Shown here one piece after another: positions 3 to 64,000 of a stretch of 64,000 bases of DNA. The DNA lies in contig CBDASK010000003.1 of NCBI GenBank assembly GCA_965199495.1, positions 3,552,001 through 3,616,000 on the forward strand, in the 5' to 3' direction. Both the position numbers and the translations under genes were made by a program. The stretch comes from Abditibacterium sp. GTDB taxonomy: Bacteria; Armatimonadota; Abditibacteriia; Abditibacteriales; Abditibacteriaceae. Under the pieces are notes generated by a model. The model was not told the DNA's origin and made no database searches. It saw only the letters and a list, made by a program, of their open reading frames with translations. Within the stretch, counting starts at the first letter, position 1; the number at the start of each line of letters is the position of its first letter.

Positions 3-959
3 AACGAAGCGCGCGAAATTTCGCCTTTGATGAATCGTCTGCACGCTCTGGCCGATAGCGTTGACGTGCATCGCCGCGCTGGTGGCATCGCGATTTTCGC
101 CAATCCCAATTTTGGCCGCGTGATGTATCTGGCGACGCCTCTGGAAGAACGTATCGTGATTGACGATAACTTCGCCACGCGCGAAATCGTGCGCGCTTTG
201 CTGACTTCGCCGCGTTATCGCGTTTTGAGTTTGACCGAGGAATCGGCGCAACTTTACGAAGGGCGCCGCGACCGTTTGCACGCTGTCAAAAACGAACATT
301 TTCCGATGACGCGCGGCATCGAAGGCGTGCAAACCGAGTTGACCAGCACTTATGGCGTCGAAGTCAGCGAATTGCAAAAAGCCGAACAGCGCGATTTTGC
401 CGAACGTGTCAAACACGCTTTGAAGGAAGTTTCCGATCACGATCCGCTTCCGTTGGCTCTGGTTGGCGTCGAGCGCACTTTGGCTTCGTTCGATGCAGCC
501 ACGGCGGGCCAAGCCGACGAGAAATTTAATGTCATCGCGCGCATGCACGGCAATTACGAGAAAGTCGGTATCGCCGAACTCGAAAGCAAATTGTGGCCCC
601 TCGTCGAACCGGCGCTGCACGGCGCCCGCGAACGCGCCAAAGAACGTTTGGAAGAAGCTGTCGGCGTGGACAAAGCCGCTTTTGGCCTCGCCAAAGTTTG
701 GGAACACGCCAACACCGGGCGCATTGATACGCTTTTGGTCGAGCGCGATTATATGCAGAGCGCGCGCGTCATCGAAAGCGATATGCCCTTTGGCACGCTC
801 GAAACCTGCGACGATTGCGACAGCAAAGAGCCGAACGTTTTGGCCGATGCCGTGGACGAGATCGTCGAAATCGTGATGCGCAATAGCGGCGATGTCGTTT
901 TCGTGGACGCCAACGAACTGGAAGAACCCGGCCACATCGCCGCGATTTTGCGCTATTAG
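3..959 (+). CDS. baeRF3-like (bacterial archaeo-eukaryotic release factor family) protein, 5' partial
   Basis: Frame is open from the window start; RYRVLSLTEESAQLYEG segment, LVGVERT, and eRF1-like C-terminus GRIDTLLVE...GHIAAILRY. Confidence 0.7.
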   Translation, partial: NEAREISPLMNRLHALADSVDVHRRAGGIAIFANPNFGRVMYLATPLEERIVIDDNFATREIVRALLTSPRYRVLSLTEESAQLYEGRRDRLHAVKNEHFPMTRGIEGVQTELTSTYGVEVSELQKAEQRDFAERVKHALKEVSDHDPLPLALVGVERTLASFDAATAGQADEKFNVIARMHGNYEKVGIAELESKLWPLVEPALHGARERAKERLEEAVGVDKAAFGLAKVWEHANTGRIDTLLVERDYMQSARVIESDMPFGTLETCDDCDSKEPNVLADAVDEIVEIVMRNSGDVVFVDANELEEPGHIAAILRY

Positions 960-983
960 CTCACGTAACTCATGTAACAGGTT

Positions 984-1039
984 TTGCGCGGCAAGCCCCT
1001 AAATCACACAAAAATCGTAGGGGCTTGCCGCGCAAGCCT
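984..1039. repeat. GTAG-type REP pair (TAGGGGCTTGCCGCGCAA and its inverse)
   Basis: 984-1001 is the reverse complement of 1018-1035; the same unit recurs at 55284-55306. Confidence 0.75.
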
Positions 1040-1067
1040 TTCACTTCACAAAATAGGAGAGTCATCC

Positions 1068-1277
1068 ATGTCAGAACAAAACACCGAACAAACGCCACTC
1101 GAACAAAAACAGGAACAGCAGGAAAAATCCAGCCCACTCGATCAAGTCCGCGAGCGTCAGGAGGCAAACCAACAGGCGTTGCAAGCCAAAGAAACCGAGG
1201 CGCAAAATCATCGCCCGCCACCCGAACATGACCCGGCGGGCAACCGCAAGGAAAACCCGCAACGACAACTGGGTTAA
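1068..1277 (+). CDS. Small hydrophilic Q/E-rich hypothetical protein
   Basis: AGGAGA SD before ATG 1068; followed by a terminator. Confidence 0.65.
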   Translation: MSEQNTEQTPLEQKQEQQEKSSPLDQVRERQEANQQALQAKETEAQNHRPPPEHDPAGNRKENPQRQLG

Positions 1278-1283
1278 ATCCAG

Positions 1284-1440: not shown

Positions 1441-4407
1441 TCATAACTCGTCGCGCACGCGCTCGAATATGCGTCGCACGTTGCTCGTATGTTGCAGCCA
1501 CGCCGCCTCGAAGCGGGTTTTGGCTTCGTCAATTGGCACGCCAGGGAACGTCGCGCGCGCCCAAATCGTGAAGTCGGGCGATTCGCGTTTGATGGCCGAG
1601 GCGCCGCCTTCGCGCGCGATTTGTAGTCGTAGTTCGGCGCGGCGCAGCCAAATATAAGCCAGTTCCAATTGCTCAAATTCTGCGGGCGAAATCAGTTCGG
1701 CCTCGCGTGCCGCTTCGAGTTGGCGCATCGTGCCCGGCGTTTGCAAACTCAAAAAACGCGCGCCCCAACGCATCGCCAGCCACTGCGCGCTCCACTCGAT
1801 GTCGCGCAACGCGCCTCGCCCCAATTTGACATCGAAACTCACGCCGCCGCGCGCGTTCAGGGGCGCGAAATCGCCGCCCAATTCGTGTTCGATGCGGCTT
1901 TTCATGTGGCGCAGATCGTCGCTCCACTGGGGATTCCATGCGTCGGGAAACGCGACGTTGCGAATGAGCGCCATCGCGCGCGCGCCGACGCGCACATCGC
2001 CCGCCACGATGCGCGCCCGCAGCAACGCCTGGCGCTCCCAAGTCGCGAAACCCGAGCGCTGCGGGTTCTCGAAATACTCGCGCATCGCATCGGGCGAACT
2101 GGCGAGCGGCCCGCTCGCGCCGTGTGGGCGCAAGCGCGCGTCCACTTCCCAGCCCGCGCCGTCCGACGTGCGCTGACCCATAAATCGCATGATGCCCTCG
2201 GCCCAGCGCGCCGCCGTGGCTGCATTGGCGCCATCGTTTTTGCCGCCGGGCGCCTGATACACAAACAGCGCGTCGCAGTCCGATGCGTAGTGCATTTCGA
2301 CGCCGCCCAGTTTGCCCATGCCCAGAACCGCGAACTCGATATTGTAGGAATCGGGCCGCAGCGTTTGTCCAATTTCGTCGGTCGCGAGTTCCAGACAAGC
2401 GCCCGCCAAAAAGGTAATTTCGTCGGTGATTTCGAGCGGCGAAATATCCAAAACTAAATCGCGAAGTCCGATGCGCAGAAACTCGCGCGCGCGCCAACGC
2501 CGCAAAGCTCCGGCGCGGTCGCGAAACGCCAGACAATACGAACGGCAATGGGCGCGCGCGCCGTCGCGACTGCGCGGGTTTTTTAAGAGTTCGCGATTGG
2601 CCGTCAAATCTAACAATTCGGGAAAGCGCACCAAGGTTTCGGCCAGAAATTGCGAGCCGCCCAAAATCGTCCAAATCGCATCGGACAAACGCGGCGTGCC
2701 GTCCAAAGCGCGCAATAGCGACAGCCGGTTGCCCGATGCCTCGCACAAATTCTCGAACGCAACCAGCGCTTTTTCGGGATTGGCCGCGCGATCCAGACCG
2801 CGCAAAGCGCCCGGCAAAACCGCGCGAATCTGACGCGACAACGGCGCCGGAAGCGGGTTGTTCGCGGTGCCGCCCGCCAATCGTTCGATGCGCGCTCTGG
2901 CGTTTTGGTCTTCCAAAACCAAGGGCGGCAAGCGCGCGTCCCAATCGGCGCTATCGGCGGAAAACGCCCAGAACAAACGTTCGCACAAGGCCCGGATTTC
3001 GGTTCGCACGCGCGTGTTTTCTTCGTCGAGCCAGCGCGCCGCACTCGCCCCGCGCCACGCGCAACCCAAGCGCCGCGCCAGCGCCGCTTTTTCGTCGGGC
3101 TTGTCGGGCAACTGGCGCACGGCCTGTTCTTTCCACAACTGCAAACGATGCTCGGCTACGCGCAGCCACAAATAACCCGCGCGCAACTGGCGCGCTTCTT
3201 CGGGCGCCAAAACGTTGATTGCGTCCAAAACTTCGATGGCGCCGAGGGTATCAGCCACGCGCGCCGGAGAATGCGTTGGGCCGACCATCATCTGCAATTG
3301 CTGCACGATCCATTCGGCGTCGCGAATGCCGCCCGGCCCGCTTTTCAAATCGCGTTCATCGCTGCCCGCGCGCGTCTTTTCGCTGCGCCGTTTCATTTCC
3401 CAGACTTCGCGCAAATGCGCGTCGTCGGCGCGGCGCGCCCACGCGACCGAACGCGTAAATTTGCGAAAACGCCGCGCTAACTTCCAATCGCCCGCAATCG
3501 CGCGCGTCTTAATCAGCGCTTGCCATTCCCACGCGGCGGCATAAGATTCATAATAGGAAAGCGCGTAACCCAACGGCGAAACCAGCGGGCCTTTGCTGCC
3601 TTCGGGCCGCAAGCGCAAATCGGCGCGCCACAATTGCCCGGACGCCGTGATTTGGCTTAGCGCACGCAACAACCGTTCGCCAATTTGCGCGGCATCTGGG
3701 CGATTTTCGCTGATGAAAATCAAGTCAATATCGCTCGAATAATTCAGTTCGCGCGCGCCGCCTTTGCCCATTAGCAGCACGCAAAATCCGGCGCAATTGT
3801 CGTCGCTCACCAAATTCAGAACGCGTTCGACGATGATTTGCGCCAAGTCGGAAATCTGGCGCACGACCAGATTAAAATCGGTTTCGTTGCGCCAAGTTTG
3901 GCGTTCCAAATCGAGCAGCCCGATGCGCAAAAACTGGCTTTTACGAAAGCGGCGCAGTTCGTCCAGATCGGCGCAATCGTTGGCCAAGGCGCGCAACTCG
4001 CCGCGACTCAACGAGTAGCCACCGGCAAAGACTTCGTCCAGATTATCGGCGCTGCCAATGACGGCATCGGCGAGGGCTTGCGACCAACTCAGCAGTTCCA
4101 TCAAGCGCGCGTGCGCCGCCGTATGCGTTTCCAAACGCGCGAAAAACGCGGCGCGCTTGGGCACGCGGTCGCACAAATTGGTGAGGTTGAGTAAGGCGCG
4201 TTCGGGATCGGCGGAGCGGCTCAAGTTTTCCAATAATTCATCGAAAATTGGCGCGAGCGCGCTTTGGTCGGCGTCGGTTTTCGCCAAGCTGCGCAACAAC
4301 CGTTCGGCGCGCGGCGCATCGGCAAAACCGAAGGCGTGGAGCGTGAAATGAAACGTGGCGGCGTCGAAATCGGTGGCGAAGAGTTGGGCGGCGAGGGACA
4401 CGGACAA
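1441..4407 (-). CDS. glnE: Bifunctional glutamine synthetase adenylyltransferase/adenylyl-removing enzyme
   Basis: Two nucleotidyltransferase modules (MGKGGARELNYSSDIDL / MGKLGGVEMHYASDCD), DLRLRPEG, LKSGPGGIRD. Confidence 0.92.
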   Translation of the reverse strand: MSVSLAAQLFATDFDAATFHFTLHAFGFADAPRAERLLRSLAKTDADQSALAPIFDELLENLSRSADPERALLNLTNLCDRVPKRAAFFARLETHTAAHARLMELLSWSQALADAVIGSADNLDEVFAGGYSLSRGELRALANDCADLDELRRFRKSQFLRIGLLDLERQTWRNETDFNLVVRQISDLAQIIVERVLNLVSDDNCAGFCVLLMGKGGARELNYSSDIDLIFISENRPDAAQIGERLLRALSQITASGQLWRADLRLRPEGSKGPLVSPLGYALSYYESYAAAWEWQALIKTRAIAGDWKLARRFRKFTRSVAWARRADDAHLREVWEMKRRSEKTRAGSDERDLKSGPGGIRDAEWIVQQLQMMVGPTHSPARVADTLGAIEVLDAINVLAPEEARQLRAGYLWLRVAEHRLQLWKEQAVRQLPDKPDEKAALARRLGCAWRGASAARWLDEENTRVRTEIRALCERLFWAFSADSADWDARLPPLVLEDQNARARIERLAGGTANNPLPAPLSRQIRAVLPGALRGLDRAANPEKALVAFENLCEASGNRLSLLRALDGTPRLSDAIWTILGGSQFLAETLVRFPELLDLTANRELLKNPRSRDGARAHCRSYCLAFRDRAGALRRWRAREFLRIGLRDLVLDISPLEITDEITFLAGACLELATDEIGQTLRPDSYNIEFAVLGMGKLGGVEMHYASDCDALFVYQAPGGKNDGANAATAARWAEGIMRFMGQRTSDGAGWEVDARLRPHGASGPLASSPDAMREYFENPQRSGFATWERQALLRARIVAGDVRVGARAMALIRNVAFPDAWNPQWSDDLRHMKSRIEHELGGDFAPLNARGGVSFDVKLGRGALRDIEWSAQWLAMRWGARFLSLQTPGTMRQLEAAREAELISPAEFEQLELAYIWLRRAELRLQIAREGGASAIKRESPDFTIWARATFPGVPIDEAKTRFEAAWLQHTSNVRRIFERVRDEL

Positions 4408-4441
4408 AGTTTAATCGCCTTCTGGCGTTTTCACGCGGCAT

Positions 4442-4894
4442 TTATTTGGGTTCGCTCGGTGGCATGAACGCGGCTTTATATTCTGGAGTTGCCAGTCCGA
4501 GCAAGGTCGCAACGCCGCCGCCGATACCCGCTGTAATCGAATAGCAGACCAGCAATCCAAACGCGAGCAAAAGTGGGCGCAGCGATTTTTTGCCGCGCGT
4601 TTTGAAGAGGTAAAACGGCACCGCTAACAGCGAAAATAAAACGAAGAAAAAAAACCAGCCCTGCGTCAGTTTAAAGCGATGCTGCGCGGCATCGAGCGTG
4701 ACCCAGCGCACGACGAAAATCGTGTTGCACAGCCCAAAGCCCAATTGATAGAGCGGATAGTAACTCGACTTGTCGGGGATCATCGCGCCAAATCAACCGG
4801 CGACGAAGAACATCGCCAGCAAAATCCATAACGTCTGGCGCTTTTCGATTTTGCGGTCGGGGGCCGTTTGAGGCGCGTGAGGTTCTTGATTCAT
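4442..4894 (-). pseudogene. Membrane protein with in-frame TGA at 4793-4795 (alternatively a shorter CDS 4442-4783)
   Basis: MNQEPHAPQ...TLWILLAMFFVAG*FGAMIPDKSS...; the stop interrupts a hydrophobic helix. Confidence 0.5.
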
Positions 4895-5005
4895 TTTTCG
4901 ATTTTCGACTTGACGTTGAAGTTTAGTTTGACACGCGCTGGCGTCCCGTCAAATTTTGCGTTGCCTGAGACGCTCGTTCTCGTCTGCAAATATCGAAATT
5001 TCCCG

Positions 5006-5230
5006 ATGCTACGCCAACTTTTGCAGGCTTTGCGCTTGTCCATTGCCGATTTTTTCGATGTGCCGTGGCCCGCCGTGGCTGCAATGCTCGCCATGATCGT
5101 TTTGCTGTGCGCCTACGCTTACCTGCGCACGAATTATTTCGCGCTTTCGTATGGCGTGCCGGGCAAATTGTTATGGTTGGGCGTTTTTATCGCGCTGGGC
5201 GTTGCGGGCAATCATCTGAGACGCCGCTAA
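5006..5230 (+). CDS. Small two-TM membrane protein
   Basis: MLRQLLQALRLS... with two hydrophobic segments; ends 6 nt before iscS. Confidence 0.55.
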   Translation: MLRQLLQALRLSIADFFDVPWPAVAAMLAMIVLLCAYAYLRTNYFALSYGVPGKLLWLGVFIALGVAGNHLRRR

Positions 5231-5236
5231 AAACTA

Positions 5237-6379
5237 ATGAATCGCACGCAAATTTATTTCGATAACGCCGCCACGACGCCGCTTTTGCCTGCGGTCAAAG
5301 CCGCGATGGAACCGTTTTGGAACGAGACTTATGGCAACGCTTCCAGCCCCTACGCCACGTCGCGCGTGGCGCGCATGGCTTTGGACGGCGCGCGAACGCA
5401 GGTCGCCAAACTCATCGGCGCGCACGCCGACGAGATCGCGTGGACGGGCGGCGGCACCGAATCCGACAACTGGGCGCTACTCGGCGTGGCCTTCGCCAAT
5501 CTGGAAAAACGCGGGCATTTCATCGTCTCGCAAATCGAACATCACGCGGTTTTAGAACCCGCACAAACGCTGCGCGAATTGGGTTTTGAAGTGGATTTCG
5601 CGCGTCCCAATTCCAACGGCGTTGTCGAACCGGACGAAATCGCGCGTCTGCTGCGCCCCGACACGCTTTTAGTCAGCGTGATGAGTTTGAACAACGAAAC
5701 CGGCGTATTGCAGCCGGTCGCGCCCATCGCCAAATTGTGCCGCGCGCGCGGCGTGTTGTTTCACACCGACGCCACGCAAAGCGCGGGCAAAGAACCGCTC
5801 GATGTGGATTTCGCGCTCGAAAACGGAATGGATGGCGGCGCGGATTTGCTGACGTTATCGGCGCACAAAATCGGCGGGCCAAAAGGCGTCGGCGCGCTCT
5901 ACATCCGGCGCGGCACACGGATGAAACCGCTACTTCGCGGCGGTGCGCAAGAACGCGGACGGCGCGCGGGAACCGAAAATGTGCCCGGCATCGCGGGACT
6001 GGGCGCAGCAGCCACGGCGGCGCGCGAAGGTTTGGTGGCGAATTCTGCGCATTTGGAAAAATTGCGCGCGCGCTTTGAAAGTGACTTGCACGAAATCGGC
6101 GCGCAAATCATCGCCGAACGCGCGCCGCGCGGGCCGCATATCAGCGCGTTTATTATCGAAAATAAGCGCGCCGAATCGCTGGCGTTGACGCTCGATTTGC
6201 GCGGGATCGCGGTGGGAACTGGCAGCGCGTGCGCATCGGGCGCGCTCGAACCGTCGCACGTTCTGGGCGCGATGGGATTTGATGCGAAATCGGCGAAATC
6301 GGCGTTGCGGGTTTCGTTCGGCGCGCAAAATACGATGGCGGAAGTGGACGAAGTGTTGAGCGTTTTGAGCGAAAAATAG
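5237..6379 (+). CDS. iscS: Cysteine desulfurase (IscS/NifS family)
   Basis: YFDNAATT, GGTESDN, SAHKIGGPKG (PLP lysine), GSACASG; adjacent to mnmA. Confidence 0.92.
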   Translation: MNRTQIYFDNAATTPLLPAVKAAMEPFWNETYGNASSPYATSRVARMALDGARTQVAKLIGAHADEIAWTGGGTESDNWALLGVAFANLEKRGHFIVSQIEHHAVLEPAQTLRELGFEVDFARPNSNGVVEPDEIARLLRPDTLLVSVMSLNNETGVLQPVAPIAKLCRARGVLFHTDATQSAGKEPLDVDFALENGMDGGADLLTLSAHKIGGPKGVGALYIRRGTRMKPLLRGGAQERGRRAGTENVPGIAGLGAAATAAREGLVANSAHLEKLRARFESDLHEIGAQIIAERAPRGPHISAFIIENKRAESLALTLDLRGIAVGTGSACASGALEPSHVLGAMGFDAKSAKSALRVSFGAQNTMAEVDEVLSVLSEK

Positions 6380-6521
6380 CCACAGAAGACACGGAGAACG
6401 CACAGAGGGGCACAGAGAAAACGAAGAAACTAAACACACGAAGGACAGTTCGAGCGAACGAGTTTTAATTTCTTCGTTTTCTCTGTGCCCCTCTGTGCGT
6501 TCTCCGTGTCTTCTGTGGCTA
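6377..6521. repeat. Long palindromic element, 9-nt-periodic family (TAGCCACAGAAGACAC...)
   Basis: 53-bp perfect arms 6377-6429 and 6469-6521; homolog at 34188-34342; its first TAG is the iscS stop. Confidence 0.85.
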
Positions 6522-6574
6522 AAAATCCCAAACTGCAACGTGTGCGATAGTTTTTCGTCTGTGTTCGGTTGAAA

Positions 6575-7648
6575 ATGAACAATCGAGTTTTAATGGCGAT
6601 GAGTGGCGGCGTCGATTCGAGCGTGGCGGCGGCGCTTTTGGTCGAGCAGGGTTATGAAGTGATCGGCGTCACCATGAAGTTGTGGGCGGGCGAAGATGAC
6701 CCGTTTGCGGCGCATCGCTTCGGCGGTTGCTGCACCGTCGGCTCGTCCGAAGATGCGCGGCGCGTGGCGCACCAACTCGATATTCCGTATTACGTTTTGA
6801 ATTTGCAGGACGAATTCAATGAGCGCGTGGTGGATAATTTCGTGAGCGAATATGCGGCGGGCCGCACGCCCAATCCGTGCGCGCGTTGCAACGAGTTCAT
6901 CAAGTTTCGCGCGTTCATCGAACGCGCCGACGAGTTGGATTGCGGGTTTATCGCCACCGGACACTACGCGCGCTTGGAACGCGACGAAGATGGCACGGCG
7001 CACCTGCGACGTGGCTTGGATGTTCGTAAAGATCAATCTTACGTTTTGGGAATGCTCACGCAAACCGAATTGCAGCGCGTTTTGTTGCCGATTGGTTCGA
7101 TGGAAAAGCCAATTGTGCGCGAGCGGGCGGGCGAATTGGGCATGGGCGTGGCGAACAAGCCCGATTCGCAGGAAATTTGTTTCGTTGAAGATGGCGATTA
7201 CGCCAAATTCGTGATTAACCGCGCGCCGCAAATGGCGGCGCCCGGCCCTATTTTGAATAGCGACGGCGAAAAGTTGGGCGAACATCGCGGGTTGGCGCAT
7301 TACACGGTCGGGCAGCGCAAAGGTCTGGGTATTGCGGCGGCCAATCCTTTGTTCGTCAATCGCATTGATGTCGAAAATAATGCGGTTATCGTCGGGCCGC
7401 GCGCATCGCTGGCGCACGAGGGTTTGAGTTGCGACAACGCGACATGGACGCAAACAGTAGCCACGGCGGGCGCGAAGTTGGAAGCGCAGACGCGCGCGCA
7501 TGGAATTTCGTATACGGGCACACTTCTAAGCGCTGACGAAAACGATTTCGCGCTCCGATTCGACGAGCCAAGCGGCGGCGTGACGCCCGGCCAATTGTGC
7601 GTTTTGTATGACGGCGACGAAGTCGTCGGCGCGGGCACGATCAGGTAG
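6575..7648 (+). CDS. mnmA: tRNA 2-thiouridine(34) synthase
   Basis: MSGGVDSSV, TPNPCARCN, ATGHY, KDQSY, DSQEICF, TPGQ. Confidence 0.96.
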   Translation: MNNRVLMAMSGGVDSSVAAALLVEQGYEVIGVTMKLWAGEDDPFAAHRFGGCCTVGSSEDARRVAHQLDIPYYVLNLQDEFNERVVDNFVSEYAAGRTPNPCARCNEFIKFRAFIERADELDCGFIATGHYARLERDEDGTAHLRRGLDVRKDQSYVLGMLTQTELQRVLLPIGSMEKPIVRERAGELGMGVANKPDSQEICFVEDGDYAKFVINRAPQMAAPGPILNSDGEKLGEHRGLAHYTVGQRKGLGIAAANPLFVNRIDVENNAVIVGPRASLAHEGLSCDNATWTQTVATAGAKLEAQTRAHGISYTGTLLSADENDFALRFDEPSGGVTPGQLCVLYDGDEVVGAGTIR

Positions 7649-7764
7649 GTGACAAGTAACAGGTAACAAGTGGCAAGGGAAGAGGTTAAAGTGAGTTCGA
7701 TAGCGCCAACTTGCCGCCACTTGTTACCTACCACTTGCTACTTGTCACCTGTTACTTGCCACCT
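7643..7764. repeat. Heptamer tandem-repeat inverted element (RGTRRCA units)
   Basis: GGTGACA AGTAACA GGTAACA AGTGGCA, then inverse units CCACTTG TTACCTA CCACTTG CTACTTG TCACCTG TTACTTG. Confidence 0.7.
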
Positions 7765-7769
7765 TTAAA

Positions 7770-8840
7770 ATGAAATCCAGACAACAAGCGATTCTTGCGG
7801 CGGTGATCGAAAAATACGTCGCGACCGCCGAGCCGGTTGGGTCGGGCGCGATTGCCTCCGATGCGGCTTTGCTCGCCCAATTTGGTGCGCTTTCGCCCGC
7901 GACGGTGCGTAGCGAACTGGCTTTTCTCGAAGGCGAAGGTTTGCTCAAGCAGCCGCACACTTCGGCGGGCCGCGTGCCAACCGACGCCGGTTATCGGTTT
8001 TATGTGAGCGAGATGATTCGTCCGCGCCGCATTTCGCGCGCCGAGCAGACGCAACTCGAAGTTGTCGCTCCGCCCGCCGCCTCGGTCGAAGACGCGATGC
8101 AAGAAGCGATGATCGTGCTGGCGAAATTGACGGGCTATCCCGCCGTGGCTTCTCTGCCGTCGGGCGTGCGCGATAACGTGCGTATGCTGCAACTCAGTCC
8201 GCTTCCGCCGCGCCGTTTGGTGCTGGTTTTGGTGACGCAGGCCGGACGATTGGAACATCGCGTCTTTGAAATTGACGACGATGTGGCGCCACAAACTTTG
8301 CACACGGTTGTTCAGTTCCTCAACGAAAACATCGGTGGACAATCTCTGGCGGGGGCGCGCAGTCTGGACTTCGAGAACGTTGCGGGCGGTCTGCACGAGG
8401 CCGCAACGATTAATCTGGCGCGGCGCGCGTGGGAAATGGTGCGCGATTCGGTGTCGGATATCGCCGACGAAAAAATCGTGGTGCAAGGTTTGATTACCTT
8501 GCTCGATGAACCCGAATTTGCCGAGATTAGTCAGGCGCGCGCCGCGATGCGCTTGCTCGATGGCGGCGCAAGTTTGGGCGAACTGTTGCGTAGCGCGCAG
8601 CAAATCGCGCCCGATTCACCCGCCGCCAATGGCGTGAAAATTGGTGCAGAAATGAGCGATTTGCCCCTCGATTATGCGGGCGCGCGCGTCTTATCGTTCG
8701 TCGGAGTTTCGTATGGCGTTGCGGGCGAAACAGTGGGCGCGTTGGGCGTTTTAGGCCCGGCTCGCATGCGATATGGCGACGTTTTGACGATTGTGCCCGC
8801 GTTGGCCGCGCGTCTGCAACTCACGCTCGAATCGTTTTGA
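7770..8840 (+). CDS. hrcA: Heat-inducible transcription repressor
   Basis: EPVGS, SPATVRSE, QPHTSAGRVPTDAGYRFYV, GVLGPARMRY. Confidence 0.95.
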   Translation: MKSRQQAILAAVIEKYVATAEPVGSGAIASDAALLAQFGALSPATVRSELAFLEGEGLLKQPHTSAGRVPTDAGYRFYVSEMIRPRRISRAEQTQLEVVAPPAASVEDAMQEAMIVLAKLTGYPAVASLPSGVRDNVRMLQLSPLPPRRLVLVLVTQAGRLEHRVFEIDDDVAPQTLHTVVQFLNENIGGQSLAGARSLDFENVAGGLHEAATINLARRAWEMVRDSVSDIADEKIVVQGLITLLDEPEFAEISQARAAMRLLDGGASLGELLRSAQQIAPDSPAANGVKIGAEMSDLPLDYAGARVLSFVGVSYGVAGETVGALGVLGPARMRYGDVLTIVPALAARLQLTLESF

Positions 8841-55271: not shown

Positions 55272-55283
55272 GAAGTTGAATTT

Positions 55284-55343: not shown

Positions 55344-55610
55344 TCAGCGCCGCACTTTGACAGCTTTGTTTGGGTCTTGCTTGCCAATCCACGCGAGAAA
55401 CTTTTCCATGCGCGGTTCGGCTCGCAGTTTGTCGGCGCTGTCGAAATGCGCGGCCAGTTCGTCGTTGGTAAACAGCGCGTGAATCTGGCGATGACAGGCG
55501 CTACAAATCCAAATCGTCGGCGTGCGCTCGCCTTTTTTGAGCTTGGAACGCGGCTTGAGATGATGTTCGGTCAGCTTCTCGACATCGCGCCGACAGAGCT
55601 TGCAAGTCAT
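55344..55610 (-). CDS. Small HNH endonuclease-family protein
   Basis: CKLC...TEHHLKP...CSACHRQIH. Confidence 0.85.
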   Translation of the reverse strand: MTCKLCRRDVEKLTEHHLKPRSKLKKGERTPTIWICSACHRQIHALFTNDELAAHFDSADKLRAEPRMEKFLAWIGKQDPNKAVKVRR

Positions 55611-55686
55611 AATCGGCGGATTTGCAAAATGGGCGCCTTGTCAAACAACGAAACATTCTGCATTACGGAGTTTCTCTTTGATTAAT

Positions 55687-55802
55687 TTGTCATTTCGAGC
55701 TTGGCGAGAAATCTTACGCCATCGCGGCAGCGAAAATTGAAATGACTTTTGACTTCCACTGGCGCGGGGCCGTAAGATTTCTCGCCAAGCTCGAAATGAC
55801 AA
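55687..55802. repeat. 116-bp TGTC-tagged palindrome left of the GIY-YIG gene
   Basis: 32-bp perfect arms TTGTCATTTCGAGCTTGGCGAGAAATCTTACG. Confidence 0.92.
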
Positions 55803-55827
55803 TAGCCCGCGAGGAAGATAGTAAATT

Positions 55828-56115
55828 TCAAAAATCGGCGCTTAAATCGCGCCTCTCTACATTCATTCCGTCAATCAAACTTTCTTTTTTAACGCGCGAC
55901 CATTTTTTGATTTGCTTCTCGCGTTCGATAGCGTCACGCACATCGCCGTATATTTCGTAATACATCAGACGATCAACGTTGTATTTTTCGGTAAATCCCT
56001 GAGTGCATTTATTTTTGTGCTGATCTATCCTACGAACTAAATTACTGGTAACGCCAACATACAGCGTGCCAGTAAAGCTACTGAGAATATAAACATAATA
56101 AGTGCGTTCTCGCAC
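55828..56115 (-). CDS. Small GIY-YIG nuclease (COG2827-like)
   Basis: YVYIL...TLYVGVTSNLVRRIDQHK...GFTEKYNV...AIEREKQIKKWSR; GTG start inferred. Confidence 0.9.
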   Translation of the reverse strand: MRERTYYVYILSSFTGTLYVGVTSNLVRRIDQHKNKCTQGFTEKYNVDRLMYYEIYGDVRDAIEREKQIKKWSRVKKESLIDGMNVERRDLSADF

Positions 56116-56158
56116 GGTGTTACTAATTTGCTTTAATTGCTTAATTATTACGGCATCG

Positions 56159-56322
56159 GCGTTATCACGCAAGGCGCCCACATTGTCATTTCGAGCTTGG
56201 CGAGAAATCTTACGGCCCCGCGCCAGCGGAAGTCAAAAGTCATTTCAATTTTCGCTGCCGCGATGGCGTAAGATTTCTCGCCAAGCTCGAAATGACAATG
56301 TGGGCGCCTTGCGTGATAACGC
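56159..56322. repeat. Right-hand copy of the 116-bp palindrome (56183-56298) with extended arms
   Basis: 56-bp perfect arms; loop is the reverse complement of the left copy's loop with one mismatch. Confidence 0.92.
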
Positions 56323-56340
56323 GGGCACCTTCATCCTTTC

Positions 56341-57675
56341 CTAAAGCCGCGCCGCAATGCGAAATATTGCGTTGGCGAGCTTGCCGGGATGATGGCGCAC
56401 GACGTTGGAAACATCCAAAAACGGGCCGTGAATCGGGCGCACGCCCAGCAATTCCAATTCGCTTTCGTCAATGGCAACCGGTTGGGCGCCAGTACCTTTG
56501 TAGCGTTCCAACATCGCGGGTGGAATCGGGGTTGAGTTGAGCAAAACGTGCGTAATCACGCCCTGACCGATGTGGCGTGTGATGGCGCGCACATGATCGG
56601 CGGCGCTCATGCCCAGCGTTTCGTTGGGCTGCGTCATCACGTTGCACACGTAAATTTTGGGCGCGCGGCTCGCTTTGAGCGCCTCGGCGATTTCGGGCAC
56701 CAACAAATTCGGGATAATCGAAGTAAAGAGCGAACCCGGCCCGATGATAATGATTTCGGCCTCGCGAATCGCCTCGACGGCGCCGGGCAGGGCGGGCGGA
56801 TCGGCGGGCGAAATCGAGACGCACAAAATATCGTGCGCCTTGTTGACGTTGGCCTGACCCTGAATGGTTTCGCCGCTTTTGGTTTCGGCGCTCAGACGAA
56901 TATCTTCGATAGTCGAGGGCAAAACGCGCCCGCGAATCGCCAGAACTTTGGAAACTTCGCGCACGGCGGCGTCGAAATCGCCGGTCTTTTCATACATCGC
57001 CGCCACGAACAGATTGCCCAGCGAATGGCCTTTGAGTTCGCCCAGACCGGTAAAACGATGTTGAAACAGATCGGTCATCAACGGCTCGGCTTCGGCGAGG
57101 GCGGCGATGCAGTTGCGCAAGTCGCCCGGCGGTAGCATTCCATGTTTGCGCAGTTCGCCCGACGAGCCGCCATCGTCGGCCATTGTCACAATCGCGGTGA
57201 TGTTACTGCTGTAAACCTTGAGGCCGCGCAGCATCGTCGAAAGTCCGGTTCCCCCGCCCAGCGCCACGATGCGCTCGCCGCTATCGAGGCGGCGACGTTT
57301 CATGGCGACATCGAGAAAGTTCGAGTGCGTTTCGTTGGAGTAGACCCGCGAAATCGAGCGATAAATCCCGCTGACACCTACAGCCACGCCTGCCGCGCCC
57401 AGCACCAAACAGGCCACGCCCAGCCTGACCGAATCGATCAAATGTCCGGTTAAGCCGTCAATGGCTGTGACAACATCCAGGGAAAAATCAACCGCGCGAT
57501 AGGCAAACGCCAGCGCCGCACCAAAAATCGAGACGACCAGTCCCGTCAGCGCCATCAACGCCCAGCGCTTGACGCCCAGCCCGATGGTGAGCCATTGCTG
57601 CAAGCGATGCCCCAACCCCGGCGGCGGCGCGGGCGCCGGGAGTTCTTTGAGTTCGTCCGGCGCCTGCGCGATCAT
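56341..57675 (-). CDS. yvcK: Gluconeogenesis factor YvcK family protein with N-terminal TMs
   Basis: GGGTGL, DDGGSSG, PPGDLRNC, GHSLGN, GPGSLFTS. Confidence 0.92.
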   Translation of the reverse strand: MIAQAPDELKELPAPAPPPGLGHRLQQWLTIGLGVKRWALMALTGLVVSIFGAALAFAYRAVDFSLDVVTAIDGLTGHLIDSVRLGVACLVLGAAGVAVGVSGIYRSISRVYSNETHSNFLDVAMKRRRLDSGERIVALGGGTGLSTMLRGLKVYSSNITAIVTMADDGGSSGELRKHGMLPPGDLRNCIAALAEAEPLMTDLFQHRFTGLGELKGHSLGNLFVAAMYEKTGDFDAAVREVSKVLAIRGRVLPSTIEDIRLSAETKSGETIQGQANVNKAHDILCVSISPADPPALPGAVEAIREAEIIIIGPGSLFTSIIPNLLVPEIAEALKASRAPKIYVCNVMTQPNETLGMSAADHVRAITRHIGQGVITHVLLNSTPIPPAMLERYKGTGAQPVAIDESELELLGVRPIHGPFLDVSNVVRHHPGKLANAIFRIAARL

Positions 57676-58661
57676 TGGGCGTCACCGCGGGCGCTTTCAT
57701 TAAGCGCGGGCGCCACCTCGAACGTCTGCGATTGCGGCCCGGCTTGTCCGTTGCTCTCATTCGTCGAACGCCCATTTTTTGGCTCCGGTTCGCCCGTATT
57801 GAGCGGCGCGTGCGCCGCCAAGTCGCGGTGCGAAGCGGCCACGCGGTGGCCCTTGGCTTCCAACTGCGCGGCCAGCCAATTGGTCAGCGCCACGCTGCGA
57901 TGGCGCCCGCCAGTGCAGCCGACGGCAATCGTCAAATAGGCTTTGCCCTCGGCCTCGAATTGGGGAATCAGAAATTCGAGAAAATCTTCCCAGCGCCGCA
58001 AAAACTCCTGCGTGATTTCCGGCGCCATCACGTAATCAACGATCGGCTGACAGAAACCATCCAAATGCCCGATGTCGCGGTCATAATTGGGATTGGGCAA
58101 AAATCGCACGTCGAAAACCAGATCGGCTCCGGCGTGTGGCCCGTGCTTGAACCCGAAACTCTCGACCTGAATCAACATGCCCGGCGCGTCGTTTTCGTCC
58201 ACAAAAGTGCGTTGCAATTCGTCGCGCAGTTCGCGCGGCGTGACGCGCGAAGTGTTAATCACTTTATCGGCGCGCTGGCGCAGTGGCACCAAAAGTTCGC
58301 GCTCGCGTTCGATGGCGGCGGCCAAACCTTCGCTGTCGCTATCAAGCGGATGCTTGCGCCGCGTTTCTTTAAATCGCTTGATGAGAGCGTCGTCGTCGCA
58401 GTCGAGGAACAGAATTTTCAGGTCAAGCGAAGTCTGTTGCAGCGCGTCAATGGCGCCCATCAATTCGGAAAAGAACTCGCCGCCGCGCACGTCCACGATA
58501 AGTGCGGCCTTGCCGATTTTGCCGCGCTCCAAAAGTTCGGCGAACGAATGAATCAACATCGGCGGCAGGTTGTCCACGCAGAAGTAGCCGAAATCCTCGA
58601 AGTGCCGCGTGGCCAAACCTTTGCCCGCGCCCGATAAACCGGTGATGACGATGAGTTGCAT
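57672..58661 (-). CDS. rapZ: RNase adapter RapZ/YvcJ
   Basis: TGLSGAGK, VDNLPP, ETRRKHP, SFGFKHG, DVRFLPNP, GCTGGRHRSV. Confidence 0.94.
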   Translation of the reverse strand: MQLIVITGLSGAGKGLATRHFEDFGYFCVDNLPPMLIHSFAELLERGKIGKAALIVDVRGGEFFSELMGAIDALQQTSLDLKILFLDCDDDALIKRFKETRRKHPLDSDSEGLAAAIERERELLVPLRQRADKVINTSRVTPRELRDELQRTFVDENDAPGMLIQVESFGFKHGPHAGADLVFDVRFLPNPNYDRDIGHLDGFCQPIVDYVMAPEITQEFLRRWEDFLEFLIPQFEAEGKAYLTIAVGCTGGRHRSVALTNWLAAQLEAKGHRVAASHRDLAAHAPLNTGEPEPKNGRSTNESNGQAGPQSQTFEVAPALNESARGDAQ

Positions 58662-58671
58662 AATTTAAAAT

Positions 58672-59070
58672 TTAGCGGCGAATTCGGTTGTCGTCCTTAC
58701 CGTTGCCGCCGACCAACGCCGTGGCTAACGCATTCACTACCGAAAGAACCAACGCGCCAACCAGCGCCGCGCCAAAATTAGAAACGTTGAAGCCCTTGAC
58801 CGCAGCAGCCACGGCGTAGAACATCAGGCCGTTGATGAGCCATGACAGAATCAGGCTCCACAAACCTAACGTCAGACACGAAAGCGGGAGCGTCAAGGCT
58901 TGCGCGATAAATTCCAAAATCGGCTTAATAACCGCGTTGACCAATCCCAAAATCAGCGCCGCGATGAGAGCGTCGCCGATGCCGTTGACCGAAATCGCGC
59001 CGCCCGACAAATTGGCGATGCCGATGAGCGCGAGCGCGCTGATAACCAGCCGAATCAAAAACGAAAACAT
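58672..59070 (-). CDS. YvlD/DUF360 four-TM membrane protein (annotated phage-holin family)
   Basis: ALILGLVNAVIKP, TLPL..LTLGL, FG.AL.GALVLSVVN. Confidence 0.85.
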   Translation of the reverse strand: MFSFLIRLVISALALIGIANLSGGAISVNGIGDALIAALILGLVNAVIKPILEFIAQALTLPLSCLTLGLWSLILSWLINGLMFYAVAAAVKGFNVSNFGAALVGALVLSVVNALATALVGGNGKDDNRIRR

Positions 59071-59191
59071 GAGACAACGACGCGCAGGGCATTTAAGCGT
59101 GAGCGTCAAGCGCAAAGTATAGCGGGCGATTGGAGGCTTCATCTCAGCGAAGCGCGACAAGGGGAAAGGACGCGATAAACTTCCGCGCTGG

Positions 59192-62100
59192 ATGCAAACT
59201 GTTCTCGCCGCTTATCTCATCGAACTCGCGCTCAAACGCGCCAACCCGCTTTCGACCGACGAACTTTCGCTGCGCGATGCGCTTTCCGACTTGCTCAACC
59301 AATCGGCGAAAGAGTTGGGCAAATCGGTTCAGTTCGTCGGCGAGGCCAAAGTTATCGCGCAGGGCACGCGGCCCGATTACATCATCGCGCGCGGCGATTT
59401 GCCCATCGGCTACATCGAAGCCGAAAAATATGGCGCCGACCTCGCCAACCTCAAAGGCCACGCCAAGAAACAGAACGACGCCTTTATCGCCGACCTCGAT
59501 AACTTTCTGCTCACCAATCATCTCGACAATCGCCTTTAGAATAAAGGCGATTGTGTCGCATCTGTTACTTTTCCCGCCGATCCGAAACTTCTGACCGACG
59601 CTCATGCGGCGGCGTGGCTGGCGTTGTGCGAACGGATGCTCGCGGGCGAAATCCAGACGATTGCCACGCCCAAAGATTTGGCGATTCTGCTGTCGCGGCG
59701 CGCGCGTTTGCTGGCGGGCGCGGCGCTGGCCGATTTGGGCGTTGACGACGAAAGCCCGGTTGACTTCGCCTACGCCCAGTTCAAGGCCGAGCTTTTGACC
59801 GACATTGATAAGGCCGAATTCGCCGACGTTTATGCCGAAACTTTGACCTACGGTTTGTTCGCCGCGCGCTGTCTGAGCGACGACAAATTCACCGTCGCCA
59901 GCGCCGACCGCGCCTTGCGCGAGATTCCCCTGTTGTCGTCGCTGTTCCACGATTACGAATTCCGCATAGACGACAACCTGCGCTGGATTCTGGACGAAAT
60001 CGTCGCGCTGCTCGATGCCGCGCCGATTGCGGGCATCACCGATTACTTCGCCAACCGCAGCGGGCGCGCCGACCCGATGCTCGACTTTTACGAGCCGTTT
60101 TTGGCCGCCTTCGACCCGCGCAAACGCGAGGCGCGCGGCGTCTATTACACGCCCGAACCCGTCGTCGGCTACATGGTGCGCAGCGTCGCCGCGCTATTGG
60201 AACGCGATTTTAATCGCAAAATTACCGATAAAGAAGTCCGGGTTCTCGACCCAGCCACGGGCACCGGCTCGTTCTTGTTCGCCGTGGCTGATGAGATCCA
60301 TCGCCAGATCGTTGACTTCGACGCGGCTTCGTGGAACGCCCAAACGGTCGAGAATACGCTCGCGCGTTTGTTCGGGTTGGAACTGATGGTCGCGCCTTAT
60401 ACCATCGCGCATCTCAAGTTGCGCCTGCAATTCGGCGCCTGGGGCACGCCGCCCCGCAGTCGCGTCGGGATTTATTTGTCCAACACGCTCGACGACCCGC
60501 GCGGCAATTATGGCGGCACGGTCGAAATGGTGAAAGAGCTTAAAACCGCCGATCAAATCAAAAGCGAAACCGAGATATTAGTCGTTATCGGCAATCCACC
60601 TTACGCTGGTCATAGCGCCAACGTCACCAAACGCGAGGTCACCGAGAACACGAGCGGTGCCATCTTGCGCAAAGGCAAAGCGGCTTCTTATTCTGAGAGT
60701 CGTGTTGTCACCAAACACAACGAAGTTGGCGCTCGCGTCGAGAGTTATAAATTTGTTGACGGCGTGAAATTGAGCGAACGCAATCTGAAGTGGTTACAAA
60801 ATGATTACGTGAAGTTTTTAGCATTCGCGCAAAACCGTATCGCGCGCACTGGAGAGGGCATCGTGGCTTACATCACAGATCGCGGCTATCTCGACAACTC
60901 GACTTTTCGCGGTCTACGCGCCAATTTGATGGATGAGTTCGACGCTTTGTATGTCCTCGATTTGCATGGTAGTGCCAAGAAAAAAGAGAAGTCGCCTGAT
61001 GGGAGCGCCGACCAAAACGTCTTTGCGATTCAGCAGGGAGTCGCAATTTTATTAGCTGTCAAAACCAAAGGTTCGAGCGGTGCGCGCGCCTCGGTTTATC
61101 ACGCCGACTTGTGGGGACGCAAAAAAGAAAAGGAAGACGCTCTTGGTGCTAACGATGTCTTGACGACGGCTTGGCAAACTCTAACGCCCAAAGCCCCGCA
61201 TTATCTGTTTTTGCCGCGCGACGAAACCCATCTGGAAGAATACAAACAAGGCTGGAAAATCACCGATGTTTTCAACCAAAATGGCGAACCTGCACCTGGC
61301 TTTGTTACGACGCAAGATCAATTTGCCATTTCATTTTCCGCCGATGAAGCCAAAACCAAAGTTAAATCATTATTGGCATCCAAAGACGAAACCGACGCCC
61401 GCAAGCTCTTTCGCTTATGTTCGCAAGATCAATGGAATTACGCTAACGCTAAACGTGATCTGGCCGTTCAAAACTGGGAATCAGAAGTCATCCCCGTTCT
61501 CTACCGCCCTTTCGATACTCGCTGGACAATTTGGAATTCCCACGTCGCCGTCCATCGCCGCGAGCGAGTTAATAAACACATGATTCGCACAAACAACATC
61601 GCGCTTTGCACGGTTCGCGGCTTGGAAACACCAGATTTTGAACACGTTTTTGTTTCCGATATCGCAATGCAACATCACACAGTTTCAATCAAAGAAGTCA
61701 ACTATATTTTCCCACTTTATCTCTACGTAGAACCCAAATCTCCGACGAAAGAACAAACCGGAACTCTCGCTGAACTTGATTTGGAATCGGTCGGTCTGGA
61801 AAAGCGCGCCAATCTCAACCCGAAGTTCGTCGCGGCCATCACGTCCATCGTCGGCGTGGCTGCTTCGCCGGAAGCGATTTTCGATTACATCTATGCCACG
61901 CTGCATCGGCCCGACTATCGCGCGAAATATGCGGCGTTTCTCAAAACCGATTTTCCGCGCATCCCGCTCCCGCGCGATGGCGAGCAGTTCGAGGCGTTGC
62001 GTTCGTTGGGCGCGCGGCTCGTCGCGCTGCATTTGCTCGATGAGAAGCGCGCGCCCGCGCTCGCGCAGTCGCCGTTCAAGCCGGTCGGCGAGGGTGATAA

Positions 62101-62356
62101 CATCGTCTCCGGCGCGCGCTATGACGAGGCCGAGCAGACGATTGGTTTCAACGCGACGCGCGGCTTCGCGCCGGTTTCGCGCGCGGTGTGGGAGTTCAAA
62201 ATCGGCGGTTATCAAGTCGCCAAGAAATGGCTCGACGACCGCAAAGGCCGAGCGCTCGAATTCGAGGAGTTGCAGCATTACGCGCAAGTTTTGGCCGCGC
62301 TGCAAGGCACGATTGAGGCGATGGCGGCGTTGCAATCGTTGGCGCGTGAGGGATAA
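59192..62356 (+). pseudogene. Single-polypeptide restriction-modification enzyme (Type IIG/ISP-like) interrupted by one in-frame TAG at 59537-59539
   Basis: N-terminal RPDY...GYIEA nuclease in frame with the MTase (GVYYTP, DPATGTGSF, GNPPY) and a C-terminal specificity region (YRPFD, DFPRIP, IGGYQVAKKWL). Confidence 0.85.
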
Positions 62357-62500
62357 ACCCCCGCACCTGCCGATTCTCAAGCAATCTTCGCCTAAATTGA
62401 ACGTGAAACCGCGCGAATGTTCATCAGTCCGCGACGACTGTTTATCCGCTTTATAATTAACCGAAAATGTTCGCGTCTCAAACTTAAACGCGAACAAGGC

Positions 62501-62540
62501 AAAAGGGCACCAAGAGATTGATTTCTCTTGGTGCCCTTTT
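62501..62540. terminator. Bidirectional terminator between convergent genes
   Basis: AAAAGGGCACCAAGAGA-N6-TCTCTTGGTGCCCTTTT. Confidence 0.8.
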
Positions 62541-62557
62541 ACTTGCGAGGCCAAAAT

Positions 62558-64000
62558 CTAATTCGCGCCGAGTTTCCGTTTGGGAATCGCGGCTTTAATC
62601 GGCTTTTCGATGGATTTGACCGGCGCGATTTTCGATTGCACTTTTTTGGGCGTCGGCGCGGGCGTTAATTCCGGTTTATCCGACGCGGGTTTCGGCGCGA
62701 CAACCGGCGAGGCGGTCGGCGTGGCTGCTGTTGCGGGCGTTGTTGTGTCGGCGTCTGTTGCGGTTGGCGTCTCGAAGGGCAGGGCGCTGACGCGGTTGGC
62801 GTCGATGTCGCGGCGGCGCAGGGTTTTCAAGTCGGCCAGCACGTTGGTGAACTGGCCTACAATCGCATCGAGTTTGTCGTCGCCGGTCTGGGCTTCGTAG
62901 ACCTCGATTTCGCCCAGCGAAACCGCGCGGTCGGAGTTGACGTTGGGATCGGCGTTGGGCAAAACGATGCCGGGGCCATTGGCCTGAAACACGAAACGCG
63001 CGTATTTGGCTTCGACCGGCGTGAACTTGAAATCCTGATTGACCGGCTCGTTTTTCAGGTTGAACACGCCCGCCGTTTTCCACGGGCCGGTCGAATAGCT
63101 GCCGTTGGTGACCTGCAATTCGACGCGGCGCGCCCAGCGCAAATCGCTCTGGTTGGAAGTCGGATTGAGCGTGACTTTACCCAACAAATGCGTGCGGTCG
63201 TTAGCGAAACCGACGGTGACGAACTCTTTGCCCGGCTCGAAACCCTGCGACGCCCAGCCGTTGGAACCCTTGTTTTCCAACGGGCGAAAGTTATCGCCGT
63301 CAATCAGTAGGTTGGGGCCATATTTCGGGTCGTTGTCATAAGTCGAGGACGAGGCCATGATCTGGCCGCCGTTTTTGGCCGCCGCGATGTTGACGTTCGC
63401 GCCCGCTTTCGTTGTGGCGTTGGCGCTCACAGTTTGAAAAGCCGCGCCGCCTTCGGCCTGCAATTTCTTGTAGGCGTTGAGTTGGGTGACGGCGTTCTCG
63501 AAACGATTAATCACGCCGCCCATTGGATCGGCATTGCCGATGGCTTCATAAATCTCGACCTCGCCCAGAGCCACGGCGCGGTCACTGCCATAATTCGAGC
63601 GAAACATCAACTTCACGAAACGCGCGTCAGTCGGCAGAATGTCGAAGCTCTGCGGCTCGCCTTTCTGCTGCAATGTCAGTTGGGCGACCGGCAGATACGG
63701 GCCTTCGGCGCTGTCGGTCGAGACCTGCACTTCGACATCTTTGACCCAGCGTTCGGGCGGCAAGTCGTTGGTCGGGTTAATCACGATGCGGCCCAACTTC
63801 ACGATGCGATTGCCCGCGAAACCCAGCGTGACCGAATCCATCGCAATCGGATCGTAGCTGTTGGAAGCCCAACCGCGCGAACTTTTGGGGCGCGCCGAGT
63901 TATAGACCTGTCCGTCAATCAAGTTGGACGCCGCGTAAAGCGGATCGTTATTGAAGGTGGAAGTGGAGGCCAGCACGCGCCCGCCGTTGGCGGCGGCGGC
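62558..64000 (-). CDS. Tandem discoidin/F5-8 type C-like domain protein with P/T/K-rich tail, 5' partial
   Basis: Two repeats of NGG...SST...NLLIDG...GWAS...ARF...LGEIEVYEA; frame open to the window end. Confidence 0.7.
   Translation of the reverse strand, partial: AAAANGGRVLASTSTFNNDPLYAASNLIDGQVYNSARPKSSRGWASNSYDPIAMDSVTLGFAGNRIVKLGRIVINPTNDLPPERWVKDVEVQVSTDSAEGPYLPVAQLTLQQKGEPQSFDILPTDARFVKLMFRSNYGSDRAVALGEVEIYEAIGNADPMGGVINRFENAVTQLNAYKKLQAEGGAAFQTVSANATTKAGANVNIAAAKNGGQIMASSSTYDNDPKYGPNLLIDGDNFRPLENKGSNGWASQGFEPGKEFVTVGFANDRTHLLGKVTLNPTSNQSDLRWARRVELQVTNGSYSTGPWKTAGVFNLKNEPVNQDFKFTPVEAKYARFVFQANGPGIVLPNADPNVNSDRAVSLGEIEVYEAQTGDDKLDAIVGQFTNVLADLKTLRRRDIDANRVSALPFETPTATDADTTTPATAATPTASPVVAPKPASDKPELTPAPTPKKVQSKIAPVKSIEKPIKAAIPKRKLGAN

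Follow-up and report, generated by a model that had tools for sequence, protein, structure and literature searches.

A hyper-abundant, asymmetric DNA word in one clade of Abditibacteriaceae has the genomic characteristics of an uptake sequence and is phased with an 11-bp A/T wave

The uptake signal sequence (USS, core AAGTGCGGT) and the DNA uptake sequence (DUS) are the described systems closest to a short DNA word that we characterize here in a 64-kb stretch of a bacterial chromosome (G000:C3:3552001-3616000, the whole of which is referred to as the window), and they occur at densities of 0.80 and 0.89 per kb, respectively (PMC2817400). The USS is described in the same source as non-palindromic, equal on both strands, mostly genic, protein-altering and absent from recent DNA, and DUS dialects vary around a fixed essential core and follow phylogeny (PMC3630211). 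A further hyper-abundant word, the highly iterated palindrome HIP1 (GCGATCGC), is under selection and lies in genes, and it is debated whether it serves chromosome architecture (PMC5861425) or transformation, which it is reported to raise (PMC13756078). The word of the window shares these properties of the USS, at a similar density, as well as the dialects of the DUS, and like HIP1 it is hyper-abundant, under selection and found in genes.

The assembly that contains the window (G000; 4.81 Mb in 3 contigs, with a chromosome of 4.72 Mb) has GCAGCCACGGCG as its most frequent 12-mer, with 690 copies (346 and 344 on the two strands) where an order-4 Markov model predicts 7. The counts of single-base variants give (W)(G)(C)AGCCACG[CGT]CG as the full word, and AGCCACG[CGT]CG was used as the working consensus for counting. 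It is found 2,799 times on the chromosome (1,407 plus, 1,392 minus, 0.59 per kb) and at background level on the small contigs (0 copies on the 25-kb and 2 on the 65-kb contig). The window holds 51 copies (23 plus, 28 minus, 0.8 per kb), 45 of them within called genes, and 73 copies of the 7-bp core. A preliminary description of the window had listed 18 perfect 12-mers, all of which we recovered with their coordinates and strands (shuffles contain 0.04 on average and 1 at most), and many near-matches; with up to two mismatches allowed, the window has 62 matches against 15.3 expected. Its frequency of about one per kb is near the value for the window and too high for the genome, and its core and word were sound except that the variable position is B and not N (27 copies with A, against 690, 357 and 276 with G, C and T). 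The base preceding AGCC, given there as a pyrimidine, is mostly C (GC precedes 1,323 of the 2,799 sites and GT only 105). The word is not a palindrome. One-mismatch variants inside AGCCAC do not exceed the null (for example 34 versus 74 and 21 versus 52), whereas those at flanking positions are enriched 2- to 15-fold, and thus the 6-bp core of the word is essential and its flanks are graded. Sites in which the G after AGCCAC is mismatched number 94 against 44 in the null and 1,929 perfect sites, so that 10-13 bp matter.

Genes were called with our own hexamer model (3,771 genes, 83.6% coding, some low-GC genes being missed), and codon nulls of 10 replicates each were generated by a synonymous shuffle that keeps the proteins, a codon-order shuffle and a dicodon model. 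The genes contain 2,556 copies of the word against 118, 65 and 304 in the three nulls, respectively, i.e. about 22-fold over the protein-preserving shuffle, which rules out codon, codon-order and dicodon usage as the cause of the counts. All six frames are enriched (e.g. 834 versus 21, 1,201 versus 26 and 40 versus 1.5), and enrichment in a single frame, which the preliminary description had named as the contrary outcome, is not seen; it had correctly placed the copies mostly inside coding sequences in several frames and strands, with the labels AATA, SSHG, RRGC and AVAA and the ClpB segment QSDAATAE. Replichores were set roughly from the switch points, at 2.05 and 4.30 Mb, of a pattern that we take to be the FtsK-orienting polar sequences (KOPS). 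This pattern is polar in G000 (138/33 and 49/160), though the word is not (713/696 and 694/696). The sites are more evenly placed than random, without enrichment between convergent genes in G000, and the 34 longest gaps are mainly islands (integrative elements, a prophage-like region, CRISPR-cas and polysaccharide genes, as judged from sequence), where gaps of 14-24 kb occur, and include one of 10 kb at a ribosomal-protein operon. The expected depletion in islands was therefore found, along with that on the small contigs, and none of the 73 core copies of the window lies in its low-GC stretch, as had been remarked. Taken together, these data show that the word is maintained at the DNA level, on both strands and in all frames, wherever the DNA has long been resident.

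The nearest named homologues of the G000 ComEA protein are those of Abditibacterium (A. utsteinense, 43%), by which we place the genome in the Abditibacteriaceae. Three of the 27 genomes of the family are rich in CAGCCACG[CGT]CG, namely G000 (2,113 copies), G011 (1,776) and G004 (720), and the other 24 have 12-94. Among 401 genomes of the phylum the 8-bp core likewise stands out in 3 (3,091, 2,676 and 3,503 copies), the rest being at about 0.14 per kb or below when read by eye. The three carriers form a clade on the ClpB tree with a support of 100/100 (20 rows, one partial row excluded), and the word is restricted to this clade, which is part of an Abditibacteriaceae genus. In 7 non-carriers, of which 20-200 kb each were scanned for k-mers, CRISPR-like or local repeats were all that emerged and no substitute word was seen, although another or a sparser signal may exist outside the scanned parts. 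A ClpB scan of named genomes found no close kin, its 80 loci holding 16 copies in 1.43 Mb, and in viruses, which were scanned for inverted pairs of the word, there were 11 single matches. We found neither the word nor any uptake sequence of this lineage described in the literature searched (subscription-only papers and supplements lie outside it, and exact 12-mers were queried only jointly with other terms). The word is real, strong and lineage-restricted, and apparently undescribed.

Alignment with orthologues bore out the suggestion that the word changes amino acids. The last motif codon in ClpB is Ala in 3/3 carriers, whereas the residue in the 16 aligned non-carriers is Lys (10), Arg (4), Thr (1) or Gln (1), and an alignment of 87,500 residues contains AAT[APS] 37 times in G000 and 9 times in non-carrier orthologues, and [AGD]VAA 43 and 16 times, respectively; the word thus overwrites conserved residues. 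Since near-matches in the orthologues can be aligned with the coding copies free of gaps, the latter have arisen by substitution. In 400-kb samples, G011 retains 80 of 129 orthologous sites, with 228 of 262 silent core positions identical against a background of 0.735, and G004 retains 25 of 142. The G004 sites have been rebuilt by substitution towards (GA)CA[CG]CAGCCACGT[CT][CT], which shows a dialect shift in which the preferred flanks have moved around a fixed core, one shift among the 3 genomes. Close inverted pairs number 54 in G004 against 5.8 expected and look intergenic by eye. As a separate observation, G000 and G004 share ClpB at 97%, a Fic protein at 94% and a 68-residue antitoxin-like open reading frame (ORF) at 94% identity, against a median of 82% (window 13291-20169; G004:C3:473471-486970), and the G000 ClpB is nearer to that of G004 than to that of G011; this suggests a recent exchange between carriers.

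The two orientations of the word form two independent series. Against an expectation from local re-placement of sites, same-orientation pairs in G000 are depleted to 3/39.7 (observed/expected) at 1-50 bp, 16/78.7 at 100-200 bp, 57/163 at 400-600 bp and 100/161 at 600-800 bp; the avoidance extends to ~800 bp and numbers are back to normal by ~1.3 kb. Opposite-orientation pairs are close to expectation, save for close inverted pairs, of which the genome has 71 at up to 45 bp, 21 of them entirely intergenic. When strand labels are shuffled, 262 ± 12 of the 549 pairs at 50-600 bp are expected in the same orientation, and 105 were observed; five control words showed no such depletion. In the window, the minimum gap of the plus series is 600 bp and the minus series has a single gap below 480 bp (70 bp). 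Non-identical variants and one-mismatch sites are likewise excluded in the same orientation on both sides, and generic frequent 10-mers of G000 cluster, which rules out slippage between direct repeats as the cause of the spacing. The asymmetry is also present in G011 (reached in 7/500 shuffles). A plain orientation-neutral site for a nucleoid protein, one of the roles initially proposed, is unlikely since the two orientations are spaced independently.

The word is also phased with its surroundings. A/T content corrected for codon position shows a wave with a period of 11.0-11.2 bp around the word, whose amplitude is 0.068 at +20..+64, 0.039 at +64..+114 and 0.038 at -60..-16, with 0.009 remaining at 200 bp. 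Its peaks lie near +26, +37, +48 and +59 and near -20, -31 and -42 in the mean of the 2,799 sites and are invisible in one copy. In the near segments, control words matched in weak and strong bases (W/S) gave 0.007-0.009, AAAAA 0.02 and random sites 0.003. The phase and size of the wave are equal at sense, antisense and intergenic sites, on both replichores and in all frames with enough sites, and it is carried mostly by third codon positions and non-coding DNA; these properties rule out protein-helix periodicity as its cause. The phase lock was repeated in G011. Genome-wide, the wave is 2-3 times stronger in carriers (0.0017 in G000, 0.0017-0.0018 across carriers) than in six non-carriers (0.0002-0.0010), the intervals of G004 and G011 not overlapping with those of the non-carriers, and it is equally strong 600-1,200 bp away from a site as beside it. 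The downstream amplitude at 171 G000 sites is 0.072, against 0.015 ± 0.008 in the non-carrier orthologues, and the wave was thus built in the carrier lineage. The word and the stronger wave share one origin, so that their co-occurrence is a single event and not a correlation. Periods above 10.5 bp are commonly linked to plectonemic supercoiled DNA (PMC4132750), a link that is disputed (PMC7537859), and the latter source calls the function of the bacterial 11-bp periodicity unclear and probably dependent on a binding partner. Given the phase lock, the word may have an intracellular role.

The spacing and the wave were compared with those of described uptake sequences. Since there was no USS carrier among a sample of 351 Pseudomonadota genomes, the USS control was built from metagenome contigs, namely loci with a USS inverted pair at their centre (72, of which 42 remained once short, sparse or overlapping ones had been dropped; 659 kb), which are presumed to be Pasteurellaceae by their USS density; the DUS control consists of prophage loci (32 of 54 kept). 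Unpaired USS at 50-400 bp form 13 same-orientation pairs versus 31.8 expected and 39 opposite pairs versus 33.1 (label shuffle 3/500), with an avoidance range of ~300 bp (loci L194-L265) against ~800 bp for the word, and the USS has phased A/T tracts on its 3' side. Spacing polarity does not, therefore, separate the word from a true uptake sequence; we found no paper that states same-orientation avoidance of the USS. Close inverted pairs are common to the DUS and the G004 word. The word is a member of neither family, its sequence being unrelated and its host lying in another phylum, outside the Neisseriaceae and Pasteurellaceae, with no ComP seen. It also differs from the USS in a phased wave that extends over 100 bp on both sides, and from the DUS in that 91% of its G000 sites are in genes versus 34.5%. 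The uptake role of the USS is proven, whereas that of the word is our interpretation.

On the whole, the genomic syndrome matches that of USS and DUS point by point, and the likeness to them in density, non-palindromic form and strand symmetry that had first been pointed out is upheld at 0.59 per kb. We consider it somewhat probable that the word is an independently evolved signal for self-DNA uptake or transformation in one Abditibacteriaceae clade, spread by molecular drive. A competence component, at the tip of the type IV pilus or at a later step, would read the asymmetric core AGCCAC and its graded flanks, would favour the word where curved DNA presents it at one helical phase, with the strongest preference on the 3' side, and would bend or wrap the duplex to begin import. 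Fragments with better sites would be imported and recombined more often, and the sites would spread in this way until neighbouring copies became redundant. With a directional or strand-specific read-out, a new copy would be redundant only near another of its own orientation, and hence two independent series would form.

The competence genes that the preliminary description had suggested looking for are present in G000, with ComEC, ComEA, DprA, several secretins and a pilB-pilT-pilC-pilD locus that has four pilins and two giant pilin-like genes, except that no small basic ComP-like pilin was seen among 44 pilin-type ORFs (PF16732 was not searched). The second giant pilin-like gene, copy B (1,328 amino acids, G000:C3:876977-880963, at the end of the pilus operon), is a speculative candidate for the reader of the word, as judged from its sequence and distribution. 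It belongs to a clade of 12 (FastTree), all three carriers have it beside copy A, and 10 copies from 9 non-carrier loci lie outside this clade. Between G000 and G011, which have the same dialect, copy B is 88% identical, with a silent identity of 0.73 that equals the genome average, and copy A 59%; copy B is 60% identical to that of the dialect-shifted G004, under the median of 82%. A model built from the alignment (pLDDT 84) predicts an N-terminal pilin fold (Z 6.7, root-mean-square deviation 3.9, 102 residues aligned), and the single-sequence model reached a pLDDT of 32. The giant pilin model has no clear structural match (best Z 7.6), the PDB holds no sequence relative, and the Atlas leads are PilX_N (31% of one cluster) and DUF4900. 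ComN is reportedly a predicted sequence-specific receptor. Neither a carrier-specific feature of ComEC nor local motif clusters pointing to a reader were found.

Other features of the competence genes were recorded. The minor pilins and giant pilin copy A (G000:C3:868655-876728) diverge far faster than the genome, with 49-80% identity to G011 and a silent identity of 0.51 in copy A, as though alleles were being exchanged with a diverse pool. In the lactamase-like domain of ComEC (L497-L501), the metal-binding motifs HxDxDH and HHGS are degenerate in the three carriers and in G012, where comEC is split in two parts ~28 kb apart, and intact in G006. The G000 chromosome encodes 47 pilin-type N-methyl motifs, most of them in DUF1559-like proteins of ~250 residues.

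Several observations weigh against an uptake role. The carriers are known from genome assemblies alone, and published uptake is orientation-independent in the systems reported (PMC1939737, PMC7811141). The competence genes are family-wide and also present in non-carriers (PilD and DprA each in 25/27 genomes). As regards copy B, the variable middle region of its clade is as divergent as that of copy A (51-57% versus 48-53%), its match to the Thermus DNA receptor ComZ is marginal (E 0.087) and does not establish a likeness, and the non-carrier G022 also has two giant pilin copies, of other clades. The density of the word in G000 is 0.30 per kb in intergenic DNA (230 of the 2,799 sites) versus 0.65 in genes, unlike USS and DUS, although the GC content of intergenic DNA is 48%. 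In G004 the same-orientation exclusion is weak (191/500 shuffles; p=0.08 on 303 single sites in 700 kb), as is the phase lock, which is no better than that of AAAAA. In the controls, the USS asymmetry is lost when one mismatch is allowed (74/500), the spacing polarity of the DUS is weak (42/500), and neither USS nor DUS is phased past its own short flanks, although the wave of their genomes is weaker.

The same data can be read as a polar site that acts inside the cell, which we regard as possible and clearly the less probable explanation. A cytoplasmic loader, translocase or DNA-wrapping protein, active in nucleoid folding, repair or replication restart, would bind supercoiled DNA at a fixed phase, wrap ~100 bp on the 3' side and act one way, and selection would keep one series per strand every ~3 kb. 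The word would then be a direction-specific anchor, tiled per strand, that sets the helical register of an 11-bp bending wave; this, too, is put forward tentatively. It would account for same-orientation pairs at 0.08-0.35 of expectation below 600 bp with opposite pairs at ~1, for a phase lock far above that of control words, for the stronger wave in carriers and at orthologous sites, and for intergenic DNA that is not enriched in G000, and it would agree with the disputed link of long periods to supercoiling. However, there is no replichore bias, gaps as long as those of the islands and the ribosomal-protein operon are tolerated, convergent-gene intervals are not enriched, the wave is undiminished at a distance from the sites, and its shared origin with the word makes their association a single event. 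Moreover, no carrier-specific Terminase_6N was found in 13 genomes, nor a carrier-specific FtsK, SMC_N or HU in 5 genomes each, the histone fold is absent from 13/13 genomes, and GyrA is ordinary-looking, without a carrier-specific feature. Of note for the latter family, all 13 genomes of the genus have a single GyrA-family gene and no ParC. If this explanation were true, the bacterial 11-bp periodicity would have its first sequence-specific phase marker in the word, which would have arisen along with the 2-3-fold stronger wave of the clade.

It is improbable that the word resembles HIP1 in being linked to a DNA methyltransferase, here one that marks a single strand, so that the methyl mark gives two series and serves self-marking or strand discrimination in repair. 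The essential core is 6 bp with a penultimate A, the arrangement of MmeI-type and BREX targets, and a fragment in G011 is 95% identical to the Type ISP-like methyltransferase that the window encodes. However, the core alone is insufficient, and the enzyme is not carrier-specific, its best G004 match being 41% and non-syntenic, and two non-carriers having matches of 45-46%. HIP1 itself is a palindrome tied to methylases, phylum-wide and periodic at tens of kb, whereas the word, which is asymmetric, occurs in only 3 species and has its phasing at 11 bp. The gene of the window (59192-62356, plus strand), an N6 methylase with Type ISP specificity, is split by an in-frame stop into a 115-residue N-terminal nuclease-like ORF and a 906-residue methylase, and the G011 frame appears open across this stop; the stop may stem from an assembly error, or the G000 gene may encode an orphan methylase.

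A Chi-like recombination hotspot that a resecting helicase-nuclease would read, and that would be replichore-neutral since two-ended breaks dominate, would fit the strict polarity of spacing but is very improbable. Chi has a leading-strand skew and a RecBCD or AddAB reader, and KOPS and the architecture imparting sequences (AIMS) are polarised from origin to terminus; the word shares orientation-dependent behaviour with these but lacks the skew and the polarisation, and divergence around its sites has no one-sided change. No AddA/RecB-type protein was found in G000, which has a single UvrD-family helicase (719 residues) and, as PD-(D/E)XK matches, two proteins, an island gene and a fusion of a nuclease with an SF1 helicase.

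A mobile repeat of the repetitive extragenic palindromic (REP) and RAYT type, or a by-product of codon usage or slippage, is equally improbable and largely refuted for G000 and G011: the intergenic doublets of G004 have GTAG first on one arm, a family likeness to REP doublets, and Y1 transposases occur in 12/13 genomes of the genus, none of them carrier-specific, but REP and REPIN units are extragenic palindromes that spread by insertion, whereas the word is genic and arises by substitution, the GTAG family of G000 is a different sequence, and neither the codon nulls nor the depletion of non-identical pairs permits a by-product. That GTAG-tagged extragenic family of the G000 chromosome (GTAGAGAC..., an 8-mer with 294 copies, e.g. 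at 83229, 161577 and 175653) is distinct from the word.

The features of the window are listed in Table 1. The ORF of its low-GC stretch (16384-17622, plus strand) encodes a charged, coiled-coil-like protein with no NCBIfam or Pfam match. Elsewhere in the window, the gene for the DNA polymerase III alpha subunit (1,652 residues, 27570-32528, plus strand) bears an intein, and the chromosome carries 131 copies of a CRISPR repeat.

Table 1. Copies of the word and related features in the window (positions in bp from the first base of the window).
Feature	Position	Strand	Description
Plus series	497..63578	+	23 copies of AGCCACG[CGT]CG; starts 497, 1496, 6010, 7459, 9571, 12431, 14652, 17796, 19044, 20504, 22639, 24614, 27090, 32186, 33998, 34598, 39438, 40857, 42482, 43371, 49814, 58807, 63569
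Minus series	2212..62726	-	28 copies; left ends 2212, 5071, 7007, 8141, 11731, 12407, 13350, 17633, 18177, 21875, 21945, 31964, 33365, 37257, 40233, 41683, 44466, 45404, 46720, 48597, 49080, 53060, 54174, 58717, 59610, 60280, 61852, 62717
clpB copy	14650..14661	+	Codes D-A-A-T-A-E
Second clpB copy	13350..13359	-	R-D-V-A; common to G000 and G004, in no aligned non-carrier
Close inverted pair, minus then plus	12407..12440	both	Within a cytochrome P450 gene
Extended anatomy, drawn on the clpB copy	14632..14762	+	Core AGCCAC; flanks graded between about -16 and +21; 11.1-bp A/T wave beyond these; mean of 2,799 sites
Low-GC stretch	16040..17622		Unannotated 412-residue ORF; zero copies of the core; like motif-free islands elsewhere

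The documented uptake sequences come from two proteobacterial families (PMC2817400; bioRxiv 10.1101/2025.10.24.684340). If the word is indeed an uptake signal, such sequences would have arisen independently a third time, in a distant phylum, with close relatives that lack the word and a dialect change under way, and both the beginnings of such a system and the gene responsible for it could be traced. The same-orientation avoidance, which the USS control shares, suggests that uptake sequences in general are shaped by a directional step. Through the phase lock, the 11-bp periodicity of bacterial genomes is tied to a specific word, so that the binding partner of this periodicity would have an address.

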